Shown: positions 604-19,760 of the stretch, piece by piece
Numbering within the stretch: position 1 is the first letter of the stretch
How the letters are laid out: every line of letters starts with the position of its first letter
DNA from: a virus
Lineage: Duplodnaviria; Heunggongvirae; Uroviricota; Caudoviricetes
Virus record (IMG/VR): IMGVR_UViG_2698536651_000010
Coordinates: 1 to 19,760 of that record
Direction: 5' to 3' (one strand)
Length of the DNA: 19,760 nucleotides
Made by a program: the position numbers and the translations under genes
The notes under the pieces: model-generated
Seen by the model: only the letters and a program-made list of their open reading frames with translations
Told to the model about the DNA's origin: nothing
Database searches by the model: none

Positions 604-2150
604 CAGGCTGACCTCACGATATAGTTAAATGCAATATTACGCGGACGCGTTTCTGAGGCTGCGGCACCTAAACCAGCCACTGATTGTTTATATGTTTTAA
701 AGGTTCCATAATCCGGTGCTGGTAATCCGGCATCGTTTGTGTTTCCTCTTTTGATAATGTCAGTGCCACTATTTACCCAGCTTTCATCAAAATAGAAATT
801 AATCGTTGCATCAGTCACAATCGTGGATCTTGACGGTAATCCATGAGCATGATCCTCCGTTGCATACCCCTGAATACTTAAAATAGAGCGACCTGTATCA
901 ATCCCCCGTCCGTCATCCCAGCCACGAATAAACTCACCACGTAAATCAGGCAATTTATTTGCCGGATAAGCCTTTGCTAGTTCCGGGTATTCTTCAGCAG
1001 AAAAAGCTGCACCATTGCATTTCAGCCAGCCTGTTGGCGGTGTGGCTGAAGGCCACGGAACAGGGACGCCAACAGGTAATGCAGAGCCTTCTCCCAAACC
1101 AAGGTATGTGAGAAGACCAGCTACATCCTTTCCACTCAAATTGGTAAGCGTATTGTCCAGCGGTTGTTTACCTGACAGCGCATTAAGCATTGTCGTGGCA
1201 AAGTTCGGATCATTCCCCAGCGCCGCTGCCAGTTCGTTCAGCGTATCCAGTGCCGCAGGTGCAGAACCCACCATTGCTGCAATTGCCGATTTCACAAAAG
1301 CGGTAGTGGCAATCTGTGTATTGTTGACCGACTGCGCCGCCGTGGGAGCTGTTGGCGTTCCGGTGAGTGCCGGACTCGACAGCGGCGCTTTTTGTGCCAG
1401 TGCATTGTTAATGGTGGTACTGAATTTCGGATCATTGTTAATGGCTGCGGCTATTTCTTTCAGCGTGTCCAGCGTGGCTGGCGCACCATTAATAAGAGCC
1501 GTCAGAGCCGCCTGAACAAACGCGGCGGTCGCAATCTGCGTGGTGTTATTCCCTGCTGCTGGCGTTGGCGCTTTGGGTGTCCCGGTAAACGTCGGACTTT
1601 CTTTGGGTGCATACTGTGAATGCGGGTCCGGTGCGGCAAGATGTTTTGCCATCTGATCATCCGCGTACACCTTCAGCTCCAGTACCTTATCATCCACATA
1701 CTTGCGGGTTGCCAGCACTACGGCAGGGTCGATTTTCAGGGTGATATTGTCCGTGCTGCTGGTAATCAGCACCATGCGCACGGTCTGGGTACGCCCGCTG
1801 CCTTCAGCCAGTTTCGGCTTATAGCTTTCCGGGCAGTTTCCCACGGCAATCAATGCCCCGGACTCATCAAACAGGCCCACTTCACGTATCCACCAACCGC
1901 CCTCGTTTTCAGGGATCACCTGTTCAGCAATAATCTGGCTACTGTTCTGCGGGTCGATATAAAGCATATTCAACGCAGCCCGGCGTTTCTCATTTACCAG
2001 TGCCGTCTGCTTTGCGTCCGGCGTCGGTAATACTCCGCCGCCATCGCCGACCGCCATATGGGTAATTTTTAGCGGCACACCGAGCGCGGCGGCGCTGGCA
2101 AGTTTCGCCGCGCCAATATCCGTCAGCAGGGTATAAAATTTTGTGCTCAT
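603..2150 (-). CDS. H: Tail fiber protein (P2 gpH-like N-terminus, tandem fibre repeats, tail-collar-type C-terminal domain)
   Basis: 515 aa. N-terminus MSTKFYTLLTDIGAAKLA...MAVGDGGG...AESYKPKLAEGSG resembles the conserved P2 gpH N-terminal domain. Two ~70-aa tandem repeats (TGTPxAPTxA...NNTxIATxAFV...DPxFxTT). C-terminus has a tail-collar-like motif (GWLKCNGAAFSAEEYPELAKAY...LPDLRGEFIRGW). ATGA overlap with gpI upstream. Confidence 0.9.
   Translation of the reverse strand: MSTKFYTLLTDIGAAKLASAAALGVPLKITHMAVGDGGGVLPTPDAKQTALVNEKRRAALNMLYIDPQNSSQIIAEQVIPENEGGWWIREVGLFDESGALIAVGNCPESYKPKLAEGSGRTQTVRMVLITSSTDNITLKIDPAVVLATRKYVDDKVLELKVYADDQMAKHLAAPDPHSQYAPKESPTFTGTPKAPTPAAGNNTTQIATAAFVQAALTALINGAPATLDTLKEIAAAINNDPKFSTTINNALAQKAPLSSPALTGTPTAPTAAQSVNNTQIATTAFVKSAIAAMVGSAPAALDTLNELAAALGNDPNFATTMLNALSGKQPLDNTLTNLSGKDVAGLLTYLGLGEGSALPVGVPVPWPSATPPTGWLKCNGAAFSAEEYPELAKAYPANKLPDLRGEFIRGWDDGRGIDTGRSILSIQGYATEDHAHGLPSRSTIVTDATINFYFDESWVNSGTDIIKRGNTNDAGLPAPDYGTFKTYKQSVAGLGAAASETRPRNIAFNYIVRSA
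1160..1600 (-). repeat. Tandem intragenic direct repeat (~220 bp unit) encoding the tail fibre repeat modules
   Basis: Near-duplicate DNA blocks, e.g. aagttcggatcatt at 1201-1214 and aatttcggatcatt at 1423-1436, followed by similar ...ttcagcgt(a/g)tccag... stretches. They correspond to the two protein repeats in gpH. Confidence 0.7.
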
Positions 2151-2752
2151 GGATTCACTCTCATTGTGTCAATAACATGGACCGCCCCGCCTTCATGCGC
2201 GGTGCCACCGGAAATAATCGTTTCGTTGATATACGGATAGATCGTGATTTCTTCGCCAAGATAGCTGGCGGCTCCCACCCAATGCGGGCCGCTGGTCTGC
2301 AGATTGATGGACATGCCGATCATGTGGCGGCTACATGGTTTGGCATCGCTTATCAGTCGCTCAAGTTCCAGATAGGTATCTTCAGTGATGCCATGGTCCT
2401 GCACTCCGATATCCAGGCGAAACGTGCCCGGTGCCTCTCCGGTCTGCCACCACTCAATAATGCGGATCAGAAAGCCGAACGGCTCCACCACCCGCCGCAC
2501 GGCACTGGTGGTCCCTTTATGCTGATGAATATAAAAAGCATCCTTCACCACCTGGCGCTTGACGCTTTCTGTCCAGCCCTCGTCCCAGCGATCCACAGAG
2601 AACGCCCAGGCGAGATAAGGCAGGAAACTGACCGGACAGGTTGCCGGATTCCACAAGTCACGAAGCGGCACCTGCAGATCAGAAATCCCGCTGCAGGTTT
2701 GCGCCAGTCGGCGCTCCAGTGGTGTTGAACCCGGTGGCAGCAGACTATTCAT
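2147..2752 (-). CDS. I: Baseplate assembly protein gpI
   Basis: 201 aa. MNSLLPPGSTPLE...RDLWNPATCP...LPYLAWAFSVDRWDEGW...GTFRLDIGV...ERLISDAKPCSRH matches the P2 gpI family as I recall it. ATG 2750-2752 preceded by AGGA; stop overlaps the gpH start. Confidence 0.85.
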   Translation of the reverse strand: MNSLLPPGSTPLERRLAQTCSGISDLQVPLRDLWNPATCPVSFLPYLAWAFSVDRWDEGWTESVKRQVVKDAFYIHQHKGTTSAVRRVVEPFGFLIRIIEWWQTGEAPGTFRLDIGVQDHGITEDTYLELERLISDAKPCSRHMIGMSINLQTSGPHWVGAASYLGEEITIYPYINETIISGGTAHEGGAVHVIDTMRVNP

Positions 2753-3422
2753 CCGTTCCTCCGTTGGTTACGCTCCACTGCGTACATGATGCCGCCTGTG
2801 TTTTGTTCAGGACCACATCCGCCAGAGGAGAAGCCAGCTCATCGGACTGCTCTTTTTTGGTAAACAGCGCCGTGACGCGGGCAAACAGGGACGGTTTGTC
2901 GTCCTGGATTTCTTCCAGTTCGATCACCGTTTCCTCTGCAGCGGTAAAGAGATTGGCAGGATTCTGCTTGCGGTTTGCCAGCGGGTTATGGGCTGCACTG
3001 GCGCTGAATGTCAGCATTTCCGTACCCAGACTGGCAGGGTCATCAGTGGCAGCCAGGCCGACCAGGTAGGCTTTGCCCGTATCAGCGAACTTCGGGCTGA
3101 CTTCCATAGAGGTGAATAATTTCTGGCCTTTTTTCACCAGTTCCACCAGGGACTCCGTTGGCTCAACGTCGGCATACAGCGCCATCTTGCCTGCCAGCGG
3201 ACCTGCCGTGATTTCTTCAGCAAACAGCGCCGTCACCTTGCCGTAGCGGTTAAAGGTGCTGTCCGGCAGATAAGACTTGATGTGCTCAAGGTTAATCAGC
3301 GCGGTATACACCGCCGGGTTGTAGCTGGCTGCCATCTGTTCCAGCCATTCACGCTGGATTTCGCGTCCGTCGGTGGTGGCACCTTCCACCCCGATGCGAA
3401 AACGCTTTGCTTTCACTGTCAT
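2745..3422 (-). CDS. O: Capsid scaffolding protein gpO-like, C-terminally truncated and running directly into gpI (likely deletion junction)
   Basis: 225 aa. MTVKAKRFRIGVEGATTDGR...INLEHIKSYLPD...YGKVTALFAEEI...SMEVSPKFADTGKAYLVGLAATDDPASLGTE... resembles P2 gpO (about 284 aa) over roughly the first 190-200 residues. The tail ...SCTQWSVTNGGTDE* has no O-like character, and the stop overlaps the gpI start. Confidence 0.7.
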   Translation of the reverse strand: MTVKAKRFRIGVEGATTDGREIQREWLEQMAASYNPAVYTALINLEHIKSYLPDSTFNRYGKVTALFAEEITAGPLAGKMALYADVEPTESLVELVKKGQKLFTSMEVSPKFADTGKAYLVGLAATDDPASLGTEMLTFSASAAHNPLANRKQNPANLFTAAEETVIELEEIQDDKPSLFARVTALFTKKEQSDELASPLADVVLNKTQAASCTQWSVTNGGTDE

Positions 3423-6364: not shown

Positions 6365-6395
6365 AAAAAGGCCATTAAATGGCCTTTTTGTTTTT
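6365..6395. terminator. Bidirectional rho-independent terminator shared by convergent Q and retron RT
   Basis: AAAAAGGCCATTAAATGGCCTTTTTGTTTTT: a GC stem flanked by an A-run and a T-run. It overlaps the last codons of the RT. Confidence 0.7.
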
Positions 6396-7349
6396 AGGAA
6401 AAAGAACACTTAGATCAACCCCATATGTTTCAGACATTTTATTTGAGAAAGTCATCAATTTTCTATAGTTTTTCTTGTCTACACTTTTAACAAACGCAAT
6501 AAGTCCTTTAACATGTTCGAAATCAGAATTTCTTTTTACCGCCAGATAATGGATCTTACTTCTAATTTCGCGATAACGTATTCTGCCAACTCCAACATTA
6601 TCAATAGATAAAACGAGCCCAGTAACCTCCTTCCTTGCTTTGGGGCCATGAATCGCAACTTTATTATAATTAACCTTCAAAGATTCACTTGGTATTATAG
6701 AGCATACAAATGACTTAGCTTTAAGTATTTTTTTTAAAGATTGAGCAGATAAAGTCAAATCATCGGCATATCGAGTAAATACGATCCCCTTACTACCTGC
6801 ATATCCATGTATTCTATAATCTAATTTAGTTAAAACAAGATTCGCAATCTTTGGAGAAGATGGTGCACCTTGAGGTAGCGAACCATTAAATGAACACAAT
6901 CTTGCTAAAGCATTAGAAATAGTAGAGTTATACCCCAGAGAATGAAAAACAGTATAGATTTTCTCTATCAGAATAGTATTAAAACAATCTTCTAAATCAA
7001 TATTTAATACATAGTTAGCTCCTACATGTGGGCTGGCATTATTTAATATTGATTGCCCTTTTTCAAAGCCTTTGGAAAATGGGGATGAATGTAACTTATC
7101 AAGGATGTTTCTTAACACCCAAGCTTGCAATGCCTTCAGCTCACGTGATGGCTGTGAAATGATGCGGGATCTCTTGCCATCTCTTTTTGGCAACGAATAA
7201 ACCTTATAGTATTTGTCAGCACGATAAATGTACAACCGGAGTATGTCTACTGATAAACGCATTTCTCTAGACATATCCTCTAAAGAGGACATAACAGGCA
7301 ATCCAAGATTGCGTAAGCGAAAAACCTGAGATGGTGTTGCGGAAGTCAT
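6375..7349 (-). CDS. Retron-type reverse transcriptase
   Basis: 324 aa. RT motifs: NIDLEDCF (motif A), LPQGAPSSPKIANL (motif B), RYADDLTLS (YADD catalytic motif C). Also the retron-associated NAxxH (NASPH) and VTG (EVTGLVL) motifs. ATG sits 2 nt after the a2 repeat, whose AAGGG acts as the SD. Region is AT-rich. Confidence 0.9.
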   Translation of the reverse strand: MTSATPSQVFRLRNLGLPVMSSLEDMSREMRLSVDILRLYIYRADKYYKVYSLPKRDGKRSRIISQPSRELKALQAWVLRNILDKLHSSPFSKGFEKGQSILNNASPHVGANYVLNIDLEDCFNTILIEKIYTVFHSLGYNSTISNALARLCSFNGSLPQGAPSSPKIANLVLTKLDYRIHGYAGSKGIVFTRYADDLTLSAQSLKKILKAKSFVCSIIPSESLKVNYNKVAIHGPKARKEVTGLVLSIDNVGVGRIRYREIRSKIHYLAVKRNSDFEHVKGLIAFVKSVDKKNYRKLMTFSNKMSETYGVDLSVLFPKNKKAI

Positions 7350-7351
7350 GA

Positions 7352-7510
7352 GCGCACCCTTACGTCATAAAAATCAGATTCCGAAGTGAAAGGAGAACAT
7401 CGGGAGATGTTCTCCTTTCAATGAGGGAACTGGTAAAACTTCAGATTGTATGTAGGACAGCGAAACACTGTCCAGTGAACTTCCGGAGAAGCCACTCGCT
7501 AAGGGTGCGC
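7352..7510 (-). ncRNA. Retron msr-msd non-coding RNA flanked by a1/a2 inverted repeats
   Basis: 11-bp inverted repeats GCGCACCCTTA (7352-7362) and TAAGGGTGCGC (7500-7510). Perfect 15-bp stem with 4-nt loop at 7387-7420 (msd-like hairpin). Short hairpin GGACAG/CTGTCC at 7455-7473 (msr-like). A G follows a1 in the transcript. Confidence 0.8.
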
Positions 7511-8404
7511 AAAACGCATCCTATCATAGTGGAGTATTGTTTTACCACGATTTTCGAAGTTCATCATATCCAGTCGTAGATTGTCCAAAGCCTTTCGATC
7601 AAAATGCTCAAGAACGTATTGCATACCAATTTCTGTAATATGGTATCCTTGAACTGAACGTCTAATTATTGACTCTTTAATCAAGCTTGAAATAACAGAC
7701 TTAACGATAATTTCACAAAGAATAGCATCTTTCTTAGTCACCAAATGTAATAGCTCATATAGAAGTATATTATCTATACCATCCATCAAATATATACACG
7801 GCAGTATAAAACGCCGAGCGTGAAGAATATTATCTATTGAGTGATTAACTGGGTTATTTTTTTTGATGTCATTAATACTTTTTATAATTCTATTATAAAA
7901 AGCTTTACCTGTACTCAAGCTTTCAAGAGTCGACAAATCTCCTCGCAATACTGCACCGCTATTAGCACGCCGAAGCAGTTTTATAGGCCCATAATTAAGA
8001 AAGCTTTTTTTAAGTTTGAATTTGTCATCCTGAAGACATATCATTTTTTTGCACAGTTTTTCATTATTTGAAAATGCGCCCAATTCAGCGAAAGAACCTG
8101 GGCTTTCAGGAATAATAATAATAACATCGACTGAATCAGCTAAAATATTCTCCAAACTTAAAAGACTATGCTGACCTTGTCCATACAAAAGCTCATCAAA
8201 CAACTCCTCAGGATAGAATATTTCTATTTTGGGATGTGTTTCCAACACTCTTTTAACTTTATTTCTACAAAAAAACGGATCATTCAAATCGCCCCCGCAA
8301 AGGAAAACAGTAACTTTATTTTTATTTTTCTGTTGAAAAAGCCGACTTTTAATTAAATTTGCCAGATTTTGCTTCTGCAACTCCGGAATAGTTTTCTTTT
8401 TCAT
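7499..8404 (-). CDS. Putative retron effector: N-terminal NDT-like (nucleoside deoxyribosyltransferase/LOG-like) domain plus C-terminal probable winged-helix DNA-binding domain
   Basis: About 301 aa from ATG 8402-8404 (track ORF starts at GTG 8410). Glycine-rich strand VTVFLCGG and IIIPESPGSFAELGAF resemble the NDT/LOG-type active-site region. Stop TAG (7499-7501) lies inside the a1 repeat. Very AT-rich. Confidence 0.7.
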   Translation of the reverse strand: MKKKTIPELQKQNLANLIKSRLFQQKNKNKVTVFLCGGDLNDPFFCRNKVKRVLETHPKIEIFYPEELFDELLYGQGQHSLLSLENILADSVDVIIIIPESPGSFAELGAFSNNEKLCKKMICLQDDKFKLKKSFLNYGPIKLLRRANSGAVLRGDLSTLESLSTGKAFYNRIIKSINDIKKNNPVNHSIDNILHARRFILPCIYLMDGIDNILLYELLHLVTKKDAILCEIIVKSVISSLIKESIIRRSVQGYHITEIGMQYVLEHFDRKALDNLRLDMMNFENRGKTILHYDRMRFAHP

Positions 8405-8918
8405 ATCCACTTTTCCTCAGAATGATCCCATCTTTTATACAACATTCAAATCTGAGTTTCCACCCGCTGCGCGCGCTCGTATCCCCGCCACGCCTGCCCG
8501 CTTTATGTAGTGGTTTTCATGCACCTGCATGACATAAGCAAAAGCACGCCAGTTCTGGCTGACTTCAGCAAAAACGATCCTCAAACGATCATGCGATCTC
8601 ATGCGTCATAGTCATGCGCTGCCAAGGGAAGCGTAAATCCGTATCTGAATGACTGCTGAAAAGCGAATCATACGGGTTTACAAAGATGAAAGTTCGCTGT
8701 GAGCGAGAAGCGAACCTTGCAACTTTGTTGGCACAGTTTTAACACCAATTTTTTGAGGATAGCTAGAAAACTTGTGGCATAAAGGATCAGTTTCCCGATC
8801 GAACTTTTTATCAAGAAGGGCTCATAGCAATCGCCAGAAGAAGTGATGTTAAAGTATTGAGCTCGGCGTTAAGATTAAATAAATTACAGACTAATCCAAT
8901 GTTTTGTGGAAGGATAAG

Positions 8919-9962
8919 ATGGCAGTCAAGCGCGCATACTACGGTAACGATAGTGACCGAGACTACTTAGAGCGGATATTTCAGTCAGCTAACATTAACT
9001 TTCTCATCGGATCAGGTGCATCCCTCCCAGCGATTAAAGTACTGGGGACAATCGAAACGGATCTTCAGCAGCTTATTAATGATGAACAGGAAGATGAATA
9101 CTTAAGGATGGCAGCTGACTTTTTGTCAGATGTTTGGCTACCTCATGAATGCATGTTGAAGCGCGGCTACGGCACCCCCTTCGCACCTCAGGTGATCACC
9201 GATTTGGAATGTACCCGTGCAAATTATGATGCATTTATGTCTTCACTGGAAAAGATACTGACCCGCCGCCGAACTGGCCTACTTCCGAGGCGTATTAACG
9301 TTTTTACAACTAATTATGATTTATTCATCGAAGAAGCTGCCACACGTAATAACAATATTCTTTTTAATGATGGATTCAATAGAAGAGCAAGTATTTTGGG
9401 AGATGCGGAATTTGATGCGGGTAGCTTTAATCATTCTGTAAGTGCAACCGGAAATCTGTATAATTATAAAGTTGAGCTTCCTACTGTTAACCTTATAAAA
9501 CTTCATGGTTCGCTCTCTTGGCAGCATTCTAAAGGGAAAATCATTTATCGTATTGCAGATATTAAGCCGCTTGACTTTCCCACCCTAGCCGAAATGAAAG
9601 GATGGGTACTTGCTCATGCACTTATTCTTCCACGTAAGGAGAAGTTTAAAGAGACTCTACTACAGAACGTTTATTATGATTTACTGAGAACCTATTCCAA
9701 CGAGCTTGATAAAGAAGCAACTTTACTAATTGTCTTTGGGTTCTCATTTGCTGATGAGCACATTGAAACGATAACTAAAAAAGCCCTGCGCAACGCCACC
9801 CTGAAGCTACTGATCTTTGCTTTCGATGAGGCCAGTGTTAACGGCTTTATGGAGAAATTTCGGGATTACTCAAACGTAGAGATTATTTATCGGCCGGGAA
9901 GAAATGTTGATTTTCCGGTAATGAATAACATTATCACGTGCTATCTGGGAGGCTCGAGATGA
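8919..9962 (+). CDS. SIR2-family (sirtuin-like) NADase of a SIR2-HerA defence pair
   Basis: ATG 8919 with AAGGA SD (track ORF starts at TTG 8904). Motifs FLIGSGAS (NAD-binding glycine loop), VFTTNYD, KLHGS (catalytic His), LIVFGFSFAD. Stop overlaps the HerA start (ATGA). Confidence 0.85.
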   Translation: MAVKRAYYGNDSDRDYLERIFQSANINFLIGSGASLPAIKVLGTIETDLQQLINDEQEDEYLRMAADFLSDVWLPHECMLKRGYGTPFAPQVITDLECTRANYDAFMSSLEKILTRRRTGLLPRRINVFTTNYDLFIEEAATRNNNILFNDGFNRRASILGDAEFDAGSFNHSVSATGNLYNYKVELPTVNLIKLHGSLSWQHSKGKIIYRIADIKPLDFPTLAEMKGWVLAHALILPRKEKFKETLLQNVYYDLLRTYSNELDKEATLLIVFGFSFADEHIETITKKALRNATLKLLIFAFDEASVNGFMEKFRDYSNVEIIYRPGRNVDFPVMNNIITCYLGGSR

Positions 9963-11818
9963 GCAGGCATTTTACTGAAGAGGAAGCGGTGCTCCGTATA
10001 GGCGAAGTCTGTGAGGTTTCTGGACGCGCTGTGACAATTTTGGTCGATAAAAACAAAAATCTCAGTGACTTGTTTTATCAGGGAAAAGTTCTAAGAAATG
10101 TATCAGTGGGTAGCTTCATTGAGATCAAAAAAGGTTTCATGAGCCTGATCGGCAAGGTTGAAGCGGAACGAATCATTGAGGAAAAACATCTCGCTGGGAG
10201 CGGCAGTGATGCCTGGCGATATCGGCGATACCTGACCTCTACTCTTACGGGTTACATTGATCGTACTGGTTGCTTCATTGGTGGTTCGCGTGAACTACCT
10301 CTCATCGGCAATGAAGTCTTCGTGGTAACTGAAGAGATGATACAGACGGTTCATCAGATAGCTGATGCAGACGAAACTGTAATGAGGTTTACTCGTACAG
10401 ATCTTGAAGATATTGAAATTGCACTACCAATCAATGGTCTTATTAATTCCCACATTGCCATTTTCGGTAATACAGGCAGCGGAAAGTCAAATACCCTAGC
10501 CGCGCTATACAAAGCAGGTATTGCCCAAGTTAAACATATTCTCGGCAACCACTTTAGTGAAAGATGCAAATTTATTCTATTCGACTTTAATGGAGAATAT
10601 ACTGCCCCACGCTGTATTACTGACGAGAAGACGGTTTATAATCTCAACACGCACCATGCAAATGGTGACAAACTTCCTCTACCCAGAGAGGTTCTACTTG
10701 AGCATGATATGCTCTCAGTTCTAACCGATGCAACAGACAAAACACAGAAACCTTTCCTGAAGAGAGTTCTTGAGTTTCGCAAGAAAGTGATGACCGCTGA
10801 CAATCCTCTTGAGTTTATGCGCAATATCCTGAAGAAAAAAGTCAGACAAAATCTCTTTAGTAGCGACAAACCCAAATGCGATACTATAAATCAGTTTCTT
10901 AGCCCAATTTTCAAAGATGACCCAGAACTTATATCTGATCTTGAGTATCATTCAACTGCATATAAATGGAAATTGAGGGGTGGTAGTATTTTCAATACAG
11001 AAGCTGATACTGAGCGCTCCTATCTATTCAGTCTTGCAAGCAATTTTTCATTTAAAACTGATATGATTGAAGAACTGTTGGACTTTATGTACTTACAGTT
11101 AATACAGGAATATTTATCTAACAAGTCTAACCCTGAACATATTTCACCAGTTATAAATAGAATGAGTGCTAACCGTAAAGATATAGCCAAAATATTTGAT
11201 ACTTCCGGACAGTCTGATTTTTGGGGTGAACATAATTTCACGGTTGTGAATCTAAATATGGTTAATATAACCATGAAAAAAACGCTTCCTCTTTTGATAG
11301 CCAAGTGGGCTTACAATATGAAGAAAATGTCTACAGAGAAATCTACACTGCACATCATTATAGATGAAGCCCACAATATTTTGTCTAATACTTCTTTTCG
11401 GGAAACGGAAAGTTGGAGAGATTATCGTCTGGAAACTTTTGAGGAAATCATAAAGGAGGGGAGAAAATTTGGAGTTTTTATCACAATTTCCAGTCAACGC
11501 CCTAATGATATATCGTCGACAATCATATCCCAAGCACACAATTATTTTATTCATCGCCTTATTAATCAGAATGATCTGTACGCAATTGAAAAATCAGTAT
11601 CATATATAGATCGACTGACTGAAGAGTCGATTCCAACGCTATCTACAGGAACCTGTATTTTTAGTGGTATCGTCTGCCCCATGCCGCTCAAATTAAGGGT
11701 AGCTGAACTTCCAATTGAAGAAAAACCTAAGAGTAATACTATTTCCTTCAACGATTTAATACCTGAGAGGCTGGGAGAGGATGACCAGAGCGACTACGTA
11801 ATAACCAGCCCTCACTAA
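9959..11818 (+). CDS. HerA-like (FtsK/HerA superfamily) ATPase, partner of SIR2
   Basis: ATG 9959 with GGGAGG SD (track starts at GTG 9938). Walker A GNTGSGKS and Walker B/DEAH-like HIIIDEAH. About 620 aa, typical of HerA partners in SIR2-HerA systems. Confidence 0.85.
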   Translation: MSRHFTEEEAVLRIGEVCEVSGRAVTILVDKNKNLSDLFYQGKVLRNVSVGSFIEIKKGFMSLIGKVEAERIIEEKHLAGSGSDAWRYRRYLTSTLTGYIDRTGCFIGGSRELPLIGNEVFVVTEEMIQTVHQIADADETVMRFTRTDLEDIEIALPINGLINSHIAIFGNTGSGKSNTLAALYKAGIAQVKHILGNHFSERCKFILFDFNGEYTAPRCITDEKTVYNLNTHHANGDKLPLPREVLLEHDMLSVLTDATDKTQKPFLKRVLEFRKKVMTADNPLEFMRNILKKKVRQNLFSSDKPKCDTINQFLSPIFKDDPELISDLEYHSTAYKWKLRGGSIFNTEADTERSYLFSLASNFSFKTDMIEELLDFMYLQLIQEYLSNKSNPEHISPVINRMSANRKDIAKIFDTSGQSDFWGEHNFTVVNLNMVNITMKKTLPLLIAKWAYNMKKMSTEKSTLHIIIDEAHNILSNTSFRETESWRDYRLETFEEIIKEGRKFGVFITISSQRPNDISSTIISQAHNYFIHRLINQNDLYAIEKSVSYIDRLTEESIPTLSTGTCIFSGIVCPMPLKLRVAELPIEEKPKSNTISFNDLIPERLGEDDQSDYVITSPH

Positions 11819-17395: not shown

Positions 17396-17617
17396 CTAAT
17401 TAAGGTTTAGATTGCATTCTGAAAGCGCATCAACGGTCATTGCTGCTATGTTGATCATCACTTTTTCGCGTTTTTTATCTTTGCGCAGACGGTGACGGAT
17501 AAGGCGTCCATCAGCCAACATGTCATTGATGGTATCGATGGATAGCCCTGTCAGCTCGCTATAGCGTTCAATAGTCACATGAGGCGTGGTAAGAGTGATT
17601 GAAATGTTAGGTCTCAT
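17396..17617 (-). CDS. Apl/Cox-like excisionase and transcriptional regulator
   Basis: 73 aa. First gene of the operon diverging from the repressor gene. HTH-like segment [21 protein letters not shown]. Assignment is mainly positional. Confidence 0.6.
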
Positions 17618-17742
17618 GATGCAACATTCCTCGTTTAATGATGATTAATCAGGACGAATACGGATCGTTTGTATTTTGTGAACACCATAAACATACGATC
17701 GCACAGTGAAATCGTCAAGATAAAAGTTCACTTGGAGTGACC
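17618..17742. promoter_or_regulatory. Lysis-lysogeny switch region (early promoter pR candidate and operator-like inverted repeat)
   Basis: On the minus strand, TTGACG (plus 17713-17718), a 17-nt spacer, then TATGTT (plus 17690-17695) form a sigma70-like promoter facing apl. Imperfect inverted repeat GATCGTTTGT (17663-17672) / ACATACGATC (17691-17700) overlaps the -10, and each arm contains a GATC site. Confidence 0.5.
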
Positions 17743-18312
17743 ATGAATTTGGAGAAAGGCGGACGAGGCGCCATAGAGCGCATGGTAGAAGCTTATGGAT
17801 TCAAGACTCGACAGGCGTTGTGCGATCATTTAGGAATCTCTAAAAGTACACTCGCCACACGCTACATGCGTGACTCATTCCCAGCAGAATGGGTAATCCA
17901 GTGCGCCCTTGAAACAGGCACCTCGCTTAATTGGCTCACAACCGGGCATGGTTCAAAGCAAACTTCAGGTAATACAAATACTATGGAAGTTGCTAAATAT
18001 GTATTATCTGATGGGGCCTTGTGTGAAGACGGTTTTTATATTTTCGATAGAGAATTTCTACCGTCGGCATTCAAGAATCTTTTTGTAATCACAGATAATA
18101 ATTCTGAATTTATTTGTGATAAGGAATTTGATGATATACGTGATGGTAAATGGGTAATAAGTATTGATGGCGAAATAACGATCCGTGACATTACTCGTTT
18201 ACCCGGTGGAAGAATCTTCGTCGAGGGTGGAAACAGAGCCTTCGAATGTAAGATAGAAGACATTGAAATAATTGGTAAAATTATAAGCTTAACAGTCAAG
18301 TATGTTAAATAG
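17743..18312 (+). CDS. cI: CI-type immunity repressor (phage 186 CI family)
   Basis: 189 aa from ATG 17743 with GGAG SD (track starts at GTG 17737). N-terminal HTH-like segment ...TRQALCDHLGISKSTLATRY.... Sits between the switch region and int, transcribed toward int as in 186. Confidence 0.8.
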   Translation: MNLEKGGRGAIERMVEAYGFKTRQALCDHLGISKSTLATRYMRDSFPAEWVIQCALETGTSLNWLTTGHGSKQTSGNTNTMEVAKYVLSDGALCEDGFYIFDREFLPSAFKNLFVITDNNSEFICDKEFDDIRDGKWVISIDGEITIRDITRLPGGRIFVEGGNRAFECKIEDIEIIGKIISLTVKYVK

Positions 18313-18327
18313 TACCGGGAGGAAATT

Positions 18328-18519
18328 ATGCTTGGTAAGGTATTTTTTGTGGTTTTGTCATGTTCTTTGTTATTAAACCCACTAGCTACCTATGCTAGAA
18401 ATTATCCCTGCTCAGGGAAAAAGGGAGGTGTTTCTCACTGTACCTCTGATGGCAAATTCGTTTGCAATGATGGAACTATTAGTAAATCCAAAAAAATCTG
18501 TACTAAAAACTCACGATAA
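18328..18519 (+). CDS. Small secreted cysteine-rich protein (moron-like)
   Basis: 63 aa with strong SD (GGGAGG, 6-nt spacing). N-terminal signal-peptide-like segment [23 protein letters not shown], then a roughly 40-aa lysine-rich mature part with four Cys. AT-rich relative to flanks. Confidence 0.6.
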
Positions 18520-18707
18520 CTTTTGCTTTTATATCTGCGCCTAAAATAAAAATGAGCCACAGGTTAACCGCAAAAGTTACATGATCACATAGCAAAAAGA
18601 ATAGCCTACTTCATTATGGCTTCAGTGAGATGTATGGTCGCAGGATTTCATACATTGACACTGGTTATACATACAGTAAAAATGCTCTCTATTGGAGGGC
18701 ATTTTTT

Positions 18708-19760
18708 ATGGCTGTACGAAAACTCACCACAGGAAAATGGCTTTGCGAATGTTACCCCGCCGGACGTAGTGGGCGTCGTGTGCGTAAACAATTCGCCACC
18801 AAAGGCGAAGCACTGGCTTTTGAGCGTCACACGATGGAAGAAACCGAAGCAAAGCCCTGGCTAGGTGAATCAGTGGATCGTCGAACACTGAAAGACGTGG
18901 TTGAGCTATGGTTCAAACTACATGGTAAATCACTGACTGCTGGGCAGCATGTCTATGACAAATTGCTGCTGATGGTTGACGCTCTGGGCAATCCCCTTGC
19001 AACTGATCTAACCTCTAAAATGTTTGCCCACTATCGAGATAAACGCCTGACAGGTGAGATCTACTTCAGCGAGAAATGGAAGAAAGGAGCAAGCCCGGTC
19101 ACCATTAACCTGGAGCAAAGCTATCTAAGTAGTGTTTTTAGCGAACTATCCCGCCTGGGCGAATGGTCGTATCCGAACCCACTGGAGAACATGCGAAAAT
19201 TCACCATCGCAGAAAAAGAGATGGCATGGCTTACCCATGAGCAGATTGTTGAATTACTGGCTGATTGCAAACGTCAGGACCCAATTCTGGCACTGGTAGT
19301 TAAGATATGCTTAAGCACAGGCGCACGCTGGCGAGAAGCCGTAAATCTTACTCGTTCACAGGTGACCAAATACCGAATTACCTTTGTAAGAACGAAGGGG
19401 AAGAAAAACAGAAGCATCCCTATCAGTAAAGAGCTTTACGAAGAGATCATGGCGCTTGATGGGTTCAATTTCTTCACAGACTGCTATTTTCAATTTTTAT
19501 CCGTGATGGAAAAAACGTCTATCGTGCTCCCTCGCGGTCAACTCACACACGTTCTGCGCCATACGTTTGCGGCGCACTTCATGATGTCGGGTGGAAACAT
19601 TCTGGCCTTACAAAAAATTCTCGGACACCACGATATAAAAATGACTATGCGTTACGCACATCTGGCACCGGATCATCTGGAAACGGCGCTCCGTTTCAAT
19701 CCTCTGGCAACGCTGCCAAGTGGCGACAAAGTGGCGGCAGCGGTTGGCATTACCCCGTAA
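18708..19760 (+). CDS. int: Tyrosine integrase (P2 Int family)
   Basis: 350 aa from ATG 18708 with GGAGGG SD. N-terminus MAVRKLTTGKW... and C-terminal catalytic region ...LRHTFAAHFMMSGGNILALQKILGHHDIKMTMRYAHL with the R...HxxR...Y pattern. Stop TAA at the window end; the att site is presumably beyond it. Confidence 0.95.
   Translation: MAVRKLTTGKWLCECYPAGRSGRRVRKQFATKGEALAFERHTMEETEAKPWLGESVDRRTLKDVVELWFKLHGKSLTAGQHVYDKLLLMVDALGNPLATDLTSKMFAHYRDKRLTGEIYFSEKWKKGASPVTINLEQSYLSSVFSELSRLGEWSYPNPLENMRKFTIAEKEMAWLTHEQIVELLADCKRQDPILALVVKICLSTGARWREAVNLTRSQVTKYRITFVRTKGKKNRSIPISKELYEEIMALDGFNFFTDCYFQFLSVMEKTSIVLPRGQLTHVLRHTFAAHFMMSGGNILALQKILGHHDIKMTMRYAHLAPDHLETALRFNPLATLPSGDKVAAAVGITP

Follow-up and report, generated by a model that had tools for sequence, protein, structure and literature searches.

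Organisation of the lysogeny module

The window, by which we mean the whole 19,760-nt stretch of DNA analysed, closes with the lysogeny module of a 186-type prophage, read on the + strand. The first gene of the lysogenic operon encodes a CI repressor of the 186 type (cI, 17743-18312, +; PF07022, E 2.8e-33; PF16452, E 2.7e-27) and the last gene of the module a tyrosine integrase (int, 18708-19760, +; Pfam PF24624 and PF00589), and between them lies a YdcA-like ORF of 63 aa with an ATG start (18328-18519, +). PGAP assigns the names 'phage repressor protein CI', at the matching position of NZ_CM132251, and 'phage integrase', with rcdA downstream of the latter; the end of the prophage and rcdA itself fall outside the window. 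A Cox/Apl-like gene and a CII (CP76) gene flank cI on its other side on the opposite strand, so that the module corresponds to a classic 186-type switch.

The ORF starts 15 nt past the cI stop (18312) and ends 188 nt short of the int ATG (18708). As read from the sequence, it is preceded by a Shine-Dalgarno motif, GGGAGG (18317-18322, +), placed 5 nt 5' of the ATG and also kept in REL606 and ETEC1748. The GC content of the ORF is 0.359 versus 0.472 for the entire window, and the low-GC tract is broader than the ORF, running from the C-terminal half of cI (0.339) to about 18650. An earlier note on this DNA had described the ORF as AT-rich and equipped with a strong Shine-Dalgarno sequence, and both descriptions hold. 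As a separate observation, the - strand carries a promoter-like match at 18308-18280 (TTAACA, 17 nt, TATAAT; 11/12), directed antisense into cI from its 3' end; promoter-like sites are no commoner in this region than in shuffles, and the match may be due to chance in AT-rich DNA.

A member of the YdcA family

The identification of the ORF product as a YdcA-family mini-protein (Pfam PF27300, NCBIfam NF007463) is well supported. The NCBIfam model NF007463 gives it 114.6 bits, above the cutoff of 93, with residues 5-63 aligning to profile positions 1-58 of 58, and in PHROGs it matches phrog_6000 (E 3e-34). PF27300, named YdcA, is precomputed on the identical protein P0001; a local Pfam scan of the ORF product returned no real match, the Pfam copy used being older than PF27300. 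YdcA of E. coli K-12 shares 57% identity with the window protein over 53 aa (BLASTP, E 1e-19), and with NF007462, the K-12-type model, the window protein scores 68.5, under the cutoff of 118, which places it in a paralogous subfamily. The gene is therefore one that is already annotated and not a new one: the 2.1-kb block of cI, ORF and int is 100% identical in E. coli 21AR0133, where the identical ORF copy is named 'YdcA family protein' by PGAP in RefSeq. This family membership was missed by the earlier note.

Among 5,426 complete E. coli genomes, 669 carry the 395-bp insert, and coverage reaches 80% or more in 590; E. coli B REL606 is one of the carriers, and the REL606/BL21 copy of the protein is 97% identical to that of the window. 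The 90% cluster comprises 355 members, which lie on no fewer than 1,000 contigs of E. coli, Salmonella and Klebsiella, and an exhaustive, library-wide profile search recovered 445 clusters at 50% identity (E <= 1e-3), some of which contain two or three tandem units. As an annotated family member present in hundreds of E. coli genomes the feature is thus ordinary, and the YdcA family is of no assigned function despite having a copy in E. coli K-12.

A literature search by the accession numbers of the prophage copy found no paper, and papers on 'YdcA' are mostly name collisions, among them the rhomboid-related YdcA of B. subtilis and a plasmid-borne 'ydcA' with the annotation of a putative adenine-specific DNA methylase. 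The UniRef label 'Conjugal transfer protein' is a legacy name that lacks support, and we set it aside as evidence.

Several family members depart from the single 40-aa unit. Among the longer ones, P0056-P0062 (Herbaspirillum and metagenomes), P0066, P0069 and P0070, one group of about 101-105 aa has an extra cysteine-rich module, C-x-C...C-[TA]-G-P-R-G-G-x-Y-C, and others consist of two or three tandem YdcA units, an arrangement that recalls the two-lobe architecture of the Legionella protein Dis2. Decayed copies occur occasionally, and P0008 (65 aa) is one with an altered N-terminal mature segment (KKIILVLGKKGG...) and a different C-terminus, in which the first and last cysteines are absent. 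In strain E47 an ISKox3 insertion lies inside the cI-YdcA-int block.

A predicted exported domain with four invariant cysteines

The N-terminal part of the protein has the properties of a signal peptide. Residues 1-16 are strongly hydrophobic (Kyte-Doolittle 9-mer means of 1.9-2.7), the AF2 model places a helix at residues 3-15, and the 23-aa leader ends in T-Y-A, followed by R. Among 26 aligned homologs the leader varies freely while keeping a basic N-terminus and a hydrophobic core; the alanine at -1 is invariant or nearly so, and -3 is always A, S, T or V. By a rule-based check on hydropathy and these conserved -3/-1 positions, residues 1-23 (18328-18396, +) are predicted to be a Sec signal peptide with an AxA-type site, cut by signal peptidase I after A23. 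What would remain is a mature YdcA domain of 40 aa (18397-18519 with the stop codon, +), with four invariant cysteines that presumably form two disulfides.

From Pro27 onward the 26 homologs are almost invariant, with C28, C38, C46, C58, P27, K32, G33, G34, F44, D48, G49, S52, S54 and K55 unchanged in all of them, and the window protein has both the four cysteines and the YdcA core motif. Its mature part contains 7 K, 2 R, 2 D and 4 C and has a pI of 9.7. The mean pLDDT of the AlphaFold model is 79.5, rising to 85-92 over residues 31-60. Free divergence of the leader beside a constrained mature part is the pattern expected when a Sec signal peptide is cleaved off a periplasmic domain, and this topology is well supported; K-12 YdcA (57 aa) has been described as carrying a signal sequence and as predicted to be periplasmic (PMC11340327). 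The earlier note had proposed a small exported cysteine-rich protein, with a possible AxA-type cleavage after ATYA followed by about 40 lysine-rich residues with four cysteines. The composition agrees with the residues counted here, and the predicted export and cleavage gain from the alignment, in which all 26 homologs keep the -3/-1 rule.

Purifying selection on the mature part

Between the window and REL606 the 96-nt mature core differs by 8 synonymous and 0 non-synonymous changes, and for pairs with estimable dS the dN/dS of the mature core is 0.013-0.025, about 0.02. Compared with P0013 and P0019, synonymous sites are saturated (pS 0.87-0.97) and only 1.5-2 non-synonymous changes are seen. 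The mature YdcA domain is 94% identical between prophages whose CI and Int proteins are 43% and 54% identical, and in Haemophilus HP2 the corresponding values are 79% for mature YdcA, 38% for CI and 51% for Int. Since synonymous sites are saturated, the high identity of YdcA reflects constraint and not recent transfer, and the ORF is a real coding gene, strongly conserved under extreme selection. Near-invariance across genera is unusual for proteins engaged in an arms race and fits a housekeeping-type interaction at least equally well.

A cargo slot between repressor and integrase

In phage 186 and SopEPhi cI abuts or overlaps int with no gene between them, so that the tract from 18313 to about 18647 (+; low GC, about 0.36), which is absent from both phages, represents added cargo; the 186 record annotates cI and int in the pL lysogenic operon. 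Megablast matches to KP12, 4LV2017 and 813R9 begin at about 18648 of the window. The same integrase is found in 1,119 E. coli genomes, and the prophages sampled all occupy the rcdA-adjacent site. Within this set the slot holds the YdcA gene in the window, REL606 and ETEC1748, a DUF4041 protein corresponding to the defence system PD-Lambda-1 in AR_0085, KP12 and 813R9 (E 2e-120), and in E2348/69 a KAP P-loop NTPase (matching PDC-S20 and PifA) together with a second CI-like gene. The view that the gene had been inserted between repressor and integrase is thus borne out, and the suggested comparison with related prophages shows that some (186 and SopEPhi) lack it and that same-integrase siblings carry other cargo in its place.

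Divergent YdcA genes likewise lie directly after cI in 186-type prophages of E. coli (P0013, 67% identical), Klebsiella (P0006), Enterobacter (P0019) and Yersinia (P0036), and in the Haemophilus phages HP2 and S2. The order CI, YdcA, an optional KAP NTPase and int recurs among the E. coli, Klebsiella, Enterobacter and Yersinia prophages and is seen in Haemophilus HP2 too. For P2-related Vibrio phages of the K139 type, published work names the interval between cI and int a defence hotspot (PMC9122126), and a minor hotspot of P2, located between integrase and primase, appears in a later survey (PMC13586616). Other contexts of YdcA include the tail and structural genes of Moraxella and Acinetobacter phages, where it does not lie by a repressor, plasmids of Acinetobacter and Rhizobium, and the chromosome of Moraxella bovoculi. 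The consistent place of the gene after cI, in a slot used for anti-phage functions, provides a concrete and testable hypothesis about its role.

Some of these neighbourhoods have features of their own. In HP2 (NC_003315; L001 2944-3126) the 60-aa YdcA ORF overlaps the cI stop by one base, is unannotated there as in S2, and is followed by orf1(S), a 254-aa gene product with a signal-like leader. In Moraxella (L024-L026 4186-4884; L005 3126-3764) YdcA is followed by a gene whose product, of about 212-232 aa, has a hydrophobic segment at its N-terminus; the gene is present both in the M. bovoculi chromosome and in phage Mcat15, suggesting that the pair forms a mobile cassette. A conserved partner gene for YdcA was considered; it occurs in Moraxella only and is absent from the window, and HP2 orf1(S) is an unconvincing relative, with 14% identity to the Mcat15 gene and 25% to the Moraxella chromosomal gene.

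Transcription and the hairpin before int

The interval from cI to the ORF yielded no terminator on the + strand. Given this absence and the 15-nt spacing, expression of the ORF in the lysogen is a sound inference, and the earlier proposal that it is carried on the transcript from repressor to int, and so made in the lysogen, is to that extent upheld. Directly 5' of the int ATG lies a hairpin, AAAAATGCTCTCT-ATT-GGAGGGCATTTTT, with a U-run (18678-18706, +), which holds the int Shine-Dalgarno sequence; the RNA fold of 18510-18710 has z = -5.6 versus shuffled sequence. The hairpin is kept across L015, L012, L011 and L002 with changed stems: the stems next to int are GCTCTCT/GGAGGGC, GTCCTCA/TGAGGAC and GCCCTC/GAGGGC, and in the other lineages T5-6 and then the ATG follow. 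It looks like a conserved terminator- or attenuator-like element past the cargo, one that appears to keep int less expressed than cI and the cargo. A long hairpin just past the ORF stop (about 18517-18580) was considered as a terminator or boundary and rejected: it has no U-run, and by our reading of the alignment the REL606 allele contains two changes that break its stem and are not compensated. An Rfam scan of 17600-18800 gave only a sub-threshold miRNA match attributable to chance.

Remainder of the prophage

Elsewhere in the window the classic P2 hotspot, flanked by the portal gene and replication gene A (6375-8410, -; 8904-11818, +), contains two defence systems, a type II-A retron (reverse transcriptase RT_II-A, E 4.5e-123; NDT effector, E 2.5e-97) and SIR2-HerA (E 6e-211 and 6e-267). 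At 2147-3422 (-) a homolog of tail gene I (2147-2752) overlaps the end of a shortened homolog of scaffold gene O, which has 225 aa and covers profile positions 2-199 of 268. What P2 normally has between O and I, namely capsid, lysis and tail genes, appears to be missing, and the prophage is probably defective. The ETEC1748 copy is also degraded, yet it keeps cI, YdcA and int.

A proposed role and its alternatives

Our preferred reading, which we favour with some reservation, is that the YdcA mini-protein is cargo of the lysogenic operon of a 186-type P2-like prophage and is exported to act at the cell envelope. The ORF would be transcribed with cI from the lysogenic promoter, as the 15-nt spacing, the lack of an intervening terminator and a hairpin that comes only afterwards suggest, and would be translated from its own strong Shine-Dalgarno sequence. 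Judging by the conserved features of the leader, the product may then leave the cytoplasm through Sec and lose its leader to signal peptidase I after T-Y-A, and its oxidation in the periplasm would yield a basic 40-aa domain with two disulfides, as the four invariant cysteines and the relation to a Dis2 lobe lead one to expect. The conservation of the mature part and the location of Dis2 point to binding of a conserved envelope component near the outer membrane. The pay-off that we judge likeliest is that the lysogen is protected at the envelope stage; superinfection exclusion at that stage, or another form of lysogenic conversion, is nonetheless put forward tentatively, as a possibility favoured by the position in a defence slot and by the precedent of Glo of Vibrio phage K139. 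Glo is no sequence relative, so that the analogy with exclusion derives from position only.

Two alternatives concern the nature of the ORF itself. One would make it non-functional or untranslated, an accident of AT-rich spacer DNA, in which short ORFs easily arise; we regard this as extremely improbable, since the differences between alleles are almost all synonymous, with a dN/dS so low that it effectively refutes the idea, and the existence of 445 family clusters in the library, a score above the curated NCBIfam cutoff for NF007463 and a strong Shine-Dalgarno sequence all speak against it as well. The other would have the product processed as a lipoprotein at V-L-S-C (Cys12) and anchored in the membrane. 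This tetrapeptide, which the earlier note had pointed out as lipobox-like, resembles a lipobox only loosely, and its cysteine is not conserved but missing from most homologs; those that do have a cysteine there carry F, I or V at -1, a misfit to the lipobox, and the 11 residues before Cys12 leave no room for a leader's charged and hydrophobic parts, whereas the AxA-type site at residues 21-23 is the conserved feature. Membership of the bacterial lipoprotein class (lipobox [LVI][ASTVI][GAS]C, signal peptidase II) was accordingly rejected because Cys12 is not conserved, and we consider membrane anchoring by this route highly improbable.

Two further alternatives accept an exported peptide and differ on what it does. 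The prophage copy might act as the chromosomal ydcA does, as a periplasmic factor in envelope, acid or organic-acid stress that makes for a fitter lysogen. The 57% identity to K-12 YdcA is in keeping with this, as are the reports that deletion of ydcA renders E. coli W sensitive to 300 mM 3-hydroxypropionate and that ydcA is YdcI-controlled and induced at pH 5 (PMC7642389); purifying selection together with 94% identity despite divergent CI and Int suggests a conserved host target, and homologs reside in a non-phage chromosome (M. bovoculi) and on plasmids. The ydcA phenotypes, however, come from a single study and lack a mechanism, and host fitness would leave the steady position after cI in a slot that holds defence genes unexplained; we rate this account as rather unlikely, though only slightly less probable than exclusion. 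A secreted cationic toxin or antimicrobial peptide, bacteriocin-like and directed against competitors, is suggested by a mature peptide that is small, basic (pI 9.7) and rich in presumed disulfides, and by a comparative genomics study in which a YdcA-family gene was among those exclusive to antimicrobial-positive Pseudomonas protegens (PMC13541209). Against it, the neighbours are cI and int, with no adjacent gene for immunity, processing or outer-membrane export, a Sec leader would deliver the peptide to the periplasm only, the chromosomal paralog of K-12 has no partner annotated as immunity, and the nearest relative with a solved structure is itself a structural protein of the periplasm, so that a toxin is in our estimate very unlikely.

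Returning to the preferred reading of an exported, envelope-acting lysogenic cargo, a broader form of it may be imagined, in which YdcA peptides constitute an unrecognised class of prophage lysogeny-module factors, soluble 40-aa domains of the periplasm with two disulfides each, co-expressed with the repressor and docking on a conserved envelope machine close to the outer membrane as Dis2 lobes do in the Dot/Icm complex, where they would block phage entry or remodel the envelope, and in which the chromosomal ydcA would be a domesticated copy. We offer this generalisation as speculation and think it unlikely.

Comparison with known systems

The nearest named relative is YdcA of E. coli K-12 (b1419), which is alike in length class, in its Sec-type leader and in the same four cysteines, and shares with the window protein the motif CSGxKGG(V/I)SHC.... 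The two differ in setting: K-12 ydcA lies in the chromosome beside rydC and hokB, whereas the window copy is borne by a prophage in the slot between cI and int. The K-12 locus (L009 3443-4176; 1491442-1492175) places ydcA between the sRNA rydC and the hokB/mokB/sokB toxin-antitoxin system, with the tiny ORF yncP directly after it, an islet-like neighbourhood that is consistent with horizontal acquisition.

In placement, the closest parallel is Glo of Vibrio phage K139, a P2-related phage whose corresponding region has the order PL, cI, orf2, glo, int. Glo is described as soluble in the periplasm and made with a Sec leader (PMC3952083), and the K139 record annotates it as 'periplasmic protein; involved in phage exclusion'. 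The window protein has the same two attributes, a position between cI and int and predicted periplasmic export. In contrast, Glo has 137 aa and the window protein 63 aa, and an exclusion phenotype is on record for Glo, while for the window protein it is putative. Homology between the two was rejected (hhalign probability 2%), the leaders alone being aligned.

The defence cargo of prophages with the same integrase and the same site, PD-Lambda-1 and the KAP NTPase, has the slot in common with the YdcA-like protein. These are large cytoplasmic proteins of ATPase or nuclease type with PADLOC models, whereas the YdcA-like protein is a predicted periplasmic peptide of 40 aa, which can sit beside a KAP NTPase in one slot; no family in PADLOC-DB 2.0 matched the ORF product at E <= 0.01.

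Among solved structures the best match, in sequence and by Foldseek, is Dis2 (Lpg0823) of the Legionella Dot/Icm system, a dispensable protein without an assigned function (PMC12716638) that is periplasmic, lies near the outer membrane, has a Sec leader and is held by disulfides (PMC8486379). The family profile matches PDB chain 7muc_AN, which is Dis2, with E 3.2e-4, and the same chain is the top Foldseek match, with a probability of 0.99 and 39% identity over 38 columns but an E of 0.07 and a TM of 0.42. An HMM restricted to the core scores 21.5 and 19.9 bits against Dis2-like proteins, a level reached by 0 of 5,000 shuffles, and PF27300 is recorded on a Dis2-like protein. Each Dis2 lobe contains the YdcA motif GG-V/I-x-x-C...G-x-x-V-C-N-D/N-G-x-x-S. 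Dis2 differs in belonging to a secretion machine and in its two lobes and five disulfides, compared with one lobe and four cysteines in the window protein, whose likeness to a Dis2 lobe in sequence and fold comes without the two-lobe architecture or the type IVB association. No secretion-system genes were found near the ORF, the window holding only P2/186-type phage genes and defence cargo. We regard the YdcA unit as a homolog of a single Dis2 lobe, the sequence evidence being moderate and the structural evidence weak. This link contradicts both the published report that Dis2 has no structural relatives in the PDB and the view of Dis proteins as specific to the order of Legionella, with no obvious homologs elsewhere, and a function found for either YdcA or Dis2 could inform the other.
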